From a virus (lineage: Duplodnaviria; Caudoviricetes), in the IMG/VR virus record IMGVR_UViG_3300030330_005136, positions 1 through 64,000 of that record: a stretch of 64,000 nt of DNA; one strand, given 5' to 3'. The translations under genes and the position numbers were made by a program. Shown piece after piece: positions 7,794 through 8,222 of the stretch. Within the stretch, counting starts at the first letter, position 1. Every line of letters begins with the position of its first letter. The notes beneath the pieces are model-generated. The model saw only the letters and a list, made by a program, of their open reading frames with translations, was not told the DNA's origin and did no database searches.

Positions 7794-8222
7794 GGGGCTG
7801 AAAGGTTTCGACATGTGTTATTTGACAATTAGGTGCAGCAGAGTTTGAGTAAACTCTTAAATAAAACTCACCAAACTCAAATGGCGATAAATCGCTTGAA
7901 GGGTTGGTGATAGATTGGCACTTAGCTGAGTACGATGTACCAGTTAAGTCTGATACTGCTGGTGTCCAAGTGACTCCTCAGGCTCACCAACAATCTTACG
8001 CTTACGCTTAAGATACTGAGTCGTTCAACACTCGGTTAGAAAACAAGTTGAACACCTCACTTTAGCTAGAGGGAAGTTAGTGATTAAAGAAACTGCCAGT
8101 TGGTAACTCTGAACAAAGTTACAAGTGGTTTGTCAGTATCTACTCATTTGAAACTGAACTAAGCTGTGAATGACCTATTGAAGAAAACTATATGGACGTG
8201 GGTTCGATTCCCACCAGCTCCA
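7794..8222 (+). ncRNA. ssrA: tmRNA (about 429 nt, CCA not encoded)
   Basis: 5' GGGGCTG...TTCGAC; 3' GAC-GTGGG-TTCGATT-CCCAC-CAGCTCC-A (T-arm plus Ala acceptor stem with G3:U pair); pk1-like element and internal tag ORF. Confidence 0.95.
7883..8011 (+). other. tmRNA tag reading frame, 42 codons
   Basis: GGC resume codon after pk1-like AGAGTTT/AAACTCT and TGAGT/ACTCA; GDKSLEGLVIDWHLAEYDVPVKSDTAGVQVTPQAHQQSYAYA-stop. Confidence 0.7.

Follow-up and report, generated by a model that had tools for sequence, protein, structure and literature searches.

The DNA analysed here (hereafter the window) is a stretch of 64,000 nucleotides (nt), the first 64 kilobases (kb) of the 73-kb IMG/VR virus record IMGVR_UViG_3300030330_005136, for which CheckV gives a completeness of ~40%. 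It carries a gene for a one-piece transfer-messenger RNA (tmRNA) in which a stop-free tag frame of 42 codons runs from the resume codon GGC at 7883-7885 to the stop codon TAA at 8009-8011 (Table 1). This frame belongs to a phage lineage that keeps a tag of 35-44 residues under purifying selection, and its best-conserved part is not the C-terminal degron. tmRNA tags are usually treated as degradation signals of ~10 residues; the tag here is some four times as long.

The Rfam model RF00023 matches 7794-8225 on the plus strand from model position 1 to 374 (99.4 bits, E 1.4e-37, gathering cut-off 47 bits), and this is the sole Rfam match within the window. Scores across the family of related phage tmRNAs described below are 80-110 bits. 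The seven acceptor pairs, the G3.U70 pair of alanine identity and the canonical T loop (UUCGAnn) are present in all 38 distinct full-length family members. In the family alignment, changes on both sides support the long P2 helix, the T arm, helix 5 (one pair, AU 7 / UA 4, drawn by RNAalifold) and pseudoknot 2 (CG 8 / UA 5 and UA 9 / CG 4), and covariation is also seen in the acceptor stem. For pseudoknot 1 (PK1) the pairing was judged sequence by sequence; the MAFFT alignment misplaced the 3' strands between sub-families. Compensatory variants occur there in both stems, namely GAGU/ACUC, GAGA/UCUC, AGGU/ACCU and GGGU/ACCC in S1, and GAGU/ACUC, GGGU/ACCC, GAAC/GUUC and AGGG/CCCU in S2, which otherwise varies by G.U pairs. 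The discriminator base is an A at 8222, after which the gene reads CAA, so that CCA is not encoded. Among 38 distinct members the acceptor stem is followed by ACAA in 33, ACUA in 4 and ACAU in 1. The CCA must therefore come from addition to the processed RNA, a route shared by many tRNA and tmRNA genes of bacteria, and membership in the tmRNA class is unaffected. An earlier description of this locus, made from the letters alone (the sequence-only reading), proposed a phage-encoded tmRNA, and this is borne out by the full-length RF00023 match and the phage genes on both flanks. Its coordinates for an element of ~429 nt were right, although the label of tRNA-like domain was not, as 429-432 nt is the entire tmRNA; the end that it gave, 8222, is the discriminator base, and the gene runs on as CAA to 8225. 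A two-piece permuted tmRNA of the Melnitz or pelagimyophage type was considered and rejected: the match to the standard model is colinear over 1-374, and no permuted-model match was found in the window. Judged from its sequence and predicted pairing, the RNA is placed in the tmRNA family by every structural criterion tested, and departs from it in tag length, in an N-terminal module and in an ending other than ALAA.

The long tag is not a one-off. Relatives were collected from IMG/VR with exact patterns: a 19-mer from the 5' end gave three close relatives and two other phage tmRNA types, the latter with tags of 9-10 residues ending LAA, and an 18-mer around the resume codon gave 14 further relatives. 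As a guard against circularity, a 23-mer from pseudoknot 2, which lies 3' of the stop codon and outside the tag, was also used and retrieved 77 contigs. In total the long-tag family comprises some 80 phage contigs of IMG/VR. The complete region is available in 71 contigs (55 distinct sequences), and in every one of these the stop codon next to pseudoknot 2 is in frame with a conserved block 34-43 codons upstream. The number of tag codons among the distinct sequences is 34 (1 sequence), 35 (8), 36 (18), 37 (5), 38 (14), 39 (4), 40 (3), 42 (1) and 43 (1). The window holds the 42-codon tag, the second longest of the family after that of contig L046 (43 codons). We found no published description of this family, in a literature on phage tmRNAs that is sparse, and the tmRNA region gave no match in 50,697 deposited phage genomes (blastn, distant mode).

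The tag is built of three parts. The first 16 codons have the consensus GD(K/N/E)SL(D/E/Q)GL(V/D/E)IDWHLA plus one further codon, with L5, G7, L8, D11 and W12 invariant in the tag alignment. A linker of 13-22 residues, of two main types marked by ...EYDYS... and ...AEMGFDNF... and rich in D, V, S, Y, P and E (acidic and proline-containing), leads from DWH to a C-terminal block. The endings found in the family are YAYAA, YAYA, YAAA, YSYAA, YANA, YAYTA, HVYA and GVYAS, some of them without terminal Ala-Ala. Over the first 16 codons, column entropies add up to 5.0, 3.0 and 12.6 for the first, second and third codon positions, and the pairwise ratio of non-synonymous to synonymous polymorphism (pN/pS) is 0.31 in the tag frame versus 1.38 and 0.84 off frame. 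For the C-terminal block the ratio is 0.53 in frame versus 1.39 and 1.51 off frame. Ten of the 16 N-terminal codons vary mostly or only synonymously at the third position while the residue is fixed; L5, L8, I10, D11, H13, L14 and A15 vary almost only in this way, and L5 uses three codons. Moreover, all indels in the tag are multiples of three across the nine length classes. This third-position variation, together with the low in-frame pN/pS and the indels in threes, leads us to conclude from sequence comparison that the entire long frame is under protein-level selection and is almost certainly translated. The coordinates and translation previously given for the frame were correct. Its ending, which had been taken as an oddity, is less of one: the family has YAYAA and YAAA in alternation with YAYA, and among the cellular tmRNAs of the candidate host group there is one with a tag ending in MAYA. 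It is thus the length and the N-terminal block that are unusual, and not the C-terminus.

Table 1. Features of the tmRNA locus in the window (positions in the window; strand; basis or remark)
Feature	Position	Strand	Basis or remark
Sigma-70-type promoter	7758..7786	+	TTGACA-17-TATATT; 11/12 consensus matches
One-piece tmRNA gene	7794..8225	+	Full-model RF00023; compensatory changes in long P2 helix, T arm, pseudoknot 2 and helix 5
Acceptor stem, 5' strand	7794..7800	+	GGGGCUG; pairs with CAGCUCC at 8215-8221, including G3.U pair (alanine identity)
Pseudoknot 1	7840..7870	+	S1 7841-7844 with 7853-7856; S2 7847-7850 with 7866-7869
Single-stranded spacer	7871..7882	+	Frame-selection positions A-4 and U-1; 11-14 nt across the family
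Tag frame	7883..8011	+	GGC 7883-7885 to TAA 8009-8011; 42 codons; ends YAYA; stop-free
Conserved N-terminal block of tag	7883..7930	+	16 codons, GDxSLxGLxIDWHLA+1; codon-position entropy and pN/pS
Variable linker of tag	7931..7984	+	Longest variant in the family, common to the window, L008 and L046
C-terminal block of tag	7985..8008	+	...QQSYAYA; family consensus (Q/E)P(S/T)YAYA(A)
Helix 5	7993..8014	+	Around last tag codons, stop codon in 3' strand; RNAalifold pairs, alignment columns 206-233
Pseudoknot 2	8016..8053	+	Immediately 3' of stop codon; stem columns 242-248 / 266-272
T arm	8198..8214	+	GUGGG / UUCGAUU / CCCAC; 4/5 stem pairs covary across the family
Insertion of ~87 nt after tmRNA 3' end	8226..8312	+	12-nt inverted repeat; hairpin and T-run
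HNH endonuclease gene	8325..8795	+	phrog_11604 2.2e-21; Pfam HNH 4.7e-08

Several features indicate where the tag starts. The GGC codon lies 12-13 nt from PK1 in the window, in agreement with the 12-nt spacer and the A at -4 of the sequence-only reading, and RF00023 aligns it to the consensus resume codon. Among 48 distinct sequences, neither A-4 nor U-1 ever changes and A-3 is present in 46, against variation at the flanking positions; 47 of the 48 resume with GGC. Four members have one additional codon after position 2, and two of these four resume with GAC. Positions -6 to +1 are known to place the resume codon, which is usually Ala, with Gly the second commonest (PMC3985003, PMC3968760). 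The in-frame "translation" 5' of GGC is unconserved and of arbitrary length. A conventional small open reading frame (ORF) was also considered, and rejected: no ATG, GTG or TTG lies in frame between the upstream stop, six codons before GGC, and GGC itself, and the TTG and GTG codons inside the frame are not conserved.

With respect to length, the usual tag has 10 residues, in a range of 8-35 (PMC3968760), and a 2025 tmRNA database paper gives a mode of 10 and discusses only exceptionally short tags (PMC11915505). The 34-43 codons of the family, with the alanine carried by the tmRNA itself, make tags of 35-44 residues that reach and exceed this range. The tag of the window, with 42 codons and a YAYA end, is thus exceptionally long, as had been claimed, and differs from the usual description of 8-35 residues ending in a hydrophobic ALAA-type degron.

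To what host such a tag would be addressed is suggested by a scan for the conserved peptide core in 185,579 prokaryote species, each represented by one genome. Only three short contigs (7.5, 0.7 and 2.6 kb) of metagenome-assembled genomes (MAGs) turned out to carry the N-terminal block, each with a phage-type tmRNA: L088 (NHIV01000037.1, MAG TMED198), L089 and L090. In L088 and L089 there are tRNA genes beside the tmRNA, as in the phage contigs. These three contigs are probably phage DNA binned into the MAGs, by contamination or from infected cells, and the scan revealed the block in no cellular tmRNA. The MAGs of L088 and L090 also carry a normal tmRNA elsewhere (172-175 bits), in both cases with the 9-residue tag ADYGYAAAA, and relatives of these MAGs encode ADYGYVAAA, ADNGYIAAA and ADNYGMAYA. 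The candidate host genomes each have 19-52 sorting domains of the type IX secretion system, versus none in 14 control genomes, and one has a SusD homologue, which points to the Bacteroidota or a neighbouring phylum of the FCB (Fibrobacterota-Chlorobiota-Bacteroidota) group. This assignment agrees with the Flavobacterium phage relatives mentioned below. On this circumstantial evidence, a Bacteroidota-like bacterium of the FCB group is the likely host. This candidate lineage has ClpX and Lon, and no SspB-family adaptor was found in its genomes. Equally long tags in the host lineage would have made the phage tag ordinary; the candidate host tags have 9 residues. If the host assignment is right, a short tag belongs to the host and the phage invented the long one, which looks like a host-type tag with ~30 codons inserted after its second codon.

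Taken together, we propose, with a probability of roughly 0.7, that the element is a functional one-piece tmRNA of a large uncultured myovirus lineage whose nearest cultured relatives infect Flavobacterium, that its long tag is translated, and that this tag would be recognised in two parts. The RNA would be served by host ribonuclease P and SmpB, and would be charged with alanine by the host alanyl-tRNA synthetase via G3.U after CCA addition by the host. It would then enter stalled ribosomes with host SmpB, and translation would resume at GGC 7883, positioned by PK1 and the A-4/U-1 context, so that 42 encoded residues would be appended in the phage of the window. In this way the RNA could keep ribosomes free during infection. 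Chains so tagged would be passed by the C-terminus to AAA+ proteases of the host, for which the candidate lineage has ClpX and Lon, and the N-terminal block may act as a second, sequence-specific recognition element for an adaptor, Lon or a phage factor. The tag layout would thus be bipartite, like SspB plus ClpX in E. coli but much enlarged. The suggestion in the sequence-only reading that the tag has adaptor-dependent recognition or a function as a peptide of its own fits the strongly conserved N-terminal block; its further ideas, that the tag could stabilise truncated phage proteins or counter ribosome-stalling defences, found no support.

Several points weigh against this proposal. Charging, tagging and degradation are predicted from sequence. 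Because the family members are related, independent events are fewer than entropy and pairwise pN/pS make them seem, and as the family was collected by exact patterns, it leaves its more divergent members unsampled. The third positions of GGG (G7) and TCG (S4) never vary, and the small helices that RNAalifold places around the resume codon are invariant; some RNA-level constraint is thus probably mixed in. AlphaFold2 predicts the tag peptide, with the family alignment, to be disordered, with no secondary structure (pLDDT, the predicted local distance difference test, of 58), and no partner emerged for its N-terminal block. The 73-kb record, at a completeness of only ~40%, gave no match to SmpB (PF01668). 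For the host, the only clues are the binning of MAGs, phage relatives that are distant (30-44% identity) and a resume context that resembles that of the phage, and the statement that the tags lie beyond the known range depends on the 8-35 residues given in a 2014 review (PMC3968760).

Among the other explanations, the one that survives best accepts a fully translated tag that does not mainly serve destruction, the N-terminal block giving tagged chains a different fate: they might be sequestered, protected, localised, or used to signal to a phage or defence factor. It corresponds to the function of its own that the sequence-only reading allowed for the peptide. The block is indeed more conserved than the degron-like end (pN/pS 0.31 vs 0.53) and absent from all cellular tmRNAs searched, and the C-terminus varies to the point that some variants lack terminal Ala-Ala. 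Most members, however, have an aromatic, Ala-rich C-terminus like the tags of the candidate host, as expected of a degradation signal, no partner gene was found near the tmRNA, and no fold is predicted for the peptide. We therefore regard this explanation as unlikely.

Still less probable is that the first 16 codons are conserved because of RNA structure or of contacts with the ribosome or SmpB, the peptide being a long spacer before an ordinary C-terminal degron. The two near-constant third positions (G7 and S4) would be in line with this, as would the small helices of RNAalifold, which join codons 1-8 to the resume region and to positions -8..-4. Yet these helices are invariant and hence without covariation support, and variation that is mostly or only synonymous at 10 of the 16 codons, with the residue fixed, is the signature of selection on the peptide.

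That translation would resume at a downstream Ala or Gly codon, giving a tag of normal length, is a very unlikely alternative that is already largely refuted. ARAGORN calls AEKSADYQPTYAAA in contigs L002 and L006 and a 20-residue tag in L093, i.e. the last 14-20 residues of the same frame, and the linker in the window contains in-frame GCU and GGU codons. These short tags, however, start inside the variable linker, at positions that are not conserved family-wide and that lie at least 70 nt from PK1, whereas the conserved A-4/U-1 context and the 11-14-nt spacing indicate GGC. Resumption downstream would also leave the coding selection in the first 16 codons unexplained. The same selection and the PK1 spacing contradict what the sequence-only reading had named as a refutation, a downstream resume codon, and its resume codon of GGC at 7883 is confirmed. 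Finally, a non-tagging decoy that titrates SmpB or blocks host trans-translation (cf. DS6A), or a captured host ssrA or attachment-site remnant, is hardly credible, since, even if phage RNAs consisting only of a tRNA-like domain are documented (PMC4131195, PMC11915505) and the phage fragment yielded no SmpB, every element of a tmRNA is in place and covaries, the tag frame is under purifying selection, and the gene lies among phage genes, syntenic in dozens of contigs, and differs from the candidate host tmRNA.

Returning to the translated, bipartite tag that we favour, a more specific version is that the N-terminal block docks to a dedicated host or phage factor, and that the phage re-routes every rescued chain via a tag of its own composed of a docking module, a flexible linker and a host-type degron. 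We put this forward tentatively, at somewhat less than even odds. Pfam scans of three tag variants gave no match at E up to 10, and a tag profile searched against PDB sequences gave one match only, a likeness of the core L(D/E)GL(D/V)IDW (codons 5-12, 7895-7918) to DGLDIDWE of chitinases of glycoside hydrolase family 18, which at E 0.5-0.65 is not significant and was rejected; the resemblance of so short a motif is probably coincidence. Together with the predicted disorder, this fits a linear motif rather than a domain. If the docking version were true, the tag would stand for a class not known before among tmRNA tags, in which a second recognition module bears no relation to SspB-type sites, and its purpose could be faster recycling of amino acids, or marking or escaping a translation-targeting defence. 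The family in any case offers a testable handle on why phages carry tmRNAs and on whether trans-translation tags can say more than "degrade me".

Comparison with known systems places the element close to the standard one-piece tmRNA (SsrA of E. coli). They share the G3.U acceptor stem, the T arm, the long P2, PK1 followed by a short spacer with A-4, a G-initial resume codon, a stop codon in helix 5 and downstream pseudoknots. The phage RNA differs in its 42 codons versus ~10, in its end YAYA versus ALAA, in the 16-residue N-terminal module, in that CCA is not encoded, and in a gene length of 432 nt. Its arrangement of module, linker and degron recalls, on a larger scale, the SspB site and ClpX site of the E. 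coli tag (PMC3985003). Tags of the Mollicutes (Mycoplasma, Mesoplasma) are likewise unusually long, and end in aromatic-Ala-aromatic-Ala instead of LAA. Gur and Sauer reportedly described these tags in 2008 as ~27 residues long and Lon-specific. Mycoplasma tags end AFA, which has been linked to the absence of ClpXP (PMC3985003). There is no sequence relationship with the phage tags, which are longer still and are encoded by a phage and not a host, and the candidate host here has ClpX as well as Lon. The long Lon-directed tags of the Mollicutes are the nearest functional counterpart, unrelated in sequence.

The candidate-host tmRNAs (G001, G002 and relatives) are similar in resume context (AUAAAU-GCC-GAU vs UCAAAU-GGC-GAU in the phage), in a second residue Asp and in aromatic, Ala-rich C-termini (YAAAA, MAYA), and one shares a 3' end in ...CCACAA. 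They differ in having a 9-residue tag versus 34-43, with no N-terminal block or linker, and in being 354-374 nt long with Rfam scores of 172-197 bits versus 80-110 for the phage family. Ribosome-rescue RNAs are also encoded by other phages, namely the mycobacteriophage Bxz1 group, Bacillus phage G, DS6A, Melnitz and pelagimyophages, and phage tmRNAs have been proposed to sustain translation or to recycle host proteins (PMC4131195, PMC9004378). The two-piece tmRNAs of Melnitz type differ in being circularly permuted and riboswitch-controlled, and the DS6A RNA in consisting of a tRNA-like domain only, with no tag frame.

Nearly all long ORFs of the window are on the plus strand, and the tmRNA is flanked by phage genes. 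PHROG and Pfam matches in the window include a T4-type baseplate wedge, tail-fibre proteins, a DNA primase, an SbcC-like nuclease and a MoxR/CobS-like AAA+ ATPase, and a PhoH gene (6751-7491) lies just 5' of the tmRNA. The most widely common neighbour is the gene at 12238-12981, present in 55 of 80 family loci at about 48% identity; its product has no PHROGs match and shares 44% identity with a hypothetical protein of Flavobacterium phage immuto. With its phage flanks and this common neighbour, the tmRNA is a phage gene and not host DNA. The nearest cultured phages, the Baltic Flavobacterium myovirus immuto and the Microcystis phage Mel-JY01, are distant (30-44% protein identity), and neither has a tmRNA. 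Among ~30 neighbour genes compared with PHROG and Pfam, no protease, adaptor or SmpB-like gene stands beside the tmRNA.

The putative promoter upstream ends 8 nt before the 5' end of the tmRNA and is conserved in the sub-clade of the window; only this sub-clade has a sigma-70-type promoter of its own. In most other members the stop codon of an ORF whose product has an acidic C-terminus lies 4-6 nt upstream of the tmRNA start, and (A/T)UAU is found just before the 5' G. The tmRNAs that follow an upstream ORF so closely are probably co-transcribed with it and excised by ribonuclease P. On the other side, the insertion behind the tmRNA is bounded by an inverted repeat (8227-8238 / 8297-8308, GTGGTTGGGTGG / CCACCCAACTAC). 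L006 and L008 lack it, the tmRNA there being directly followed by the HNH gene, and L002 shares no more than its left end. Either a small mobile hairpin element or an acquired terminator could account for the insertion. Of 80 family loci, just 6 have the HNH gene itself, with 93% identity; it is thus probably a recently spread homing endonuclease with the tmRNA 3' flank as its site. Further away, 2510-3031 encodes a polynucleotide kinase-phosphatase domain (HAD_PNKP, 1.7e-30), of the RNA-repair type known from T4 Pnkp. Its presence together with a tmRNA suggests an investment by the phage in mending a damaged translation apparatus or in getting around such damage.

ARAGORN, proposed earlier as a check, reports no tRNA or tmRNA in the window. 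It also finds nothing in L008 and L094, nor in the short-tag phage tmRNAs of L003, L004, L005, L007 and L009. As this program misses such genes or truncates their tags, annotation pipelines that depend on it will under-report or mis-call them. In the related phage contig L014, positions 8107-8198 match the Rfam tRNA-Sec model (RF01852) with 65.4 bits (cut-off 47), a possible phage selenocysteine tRNA.

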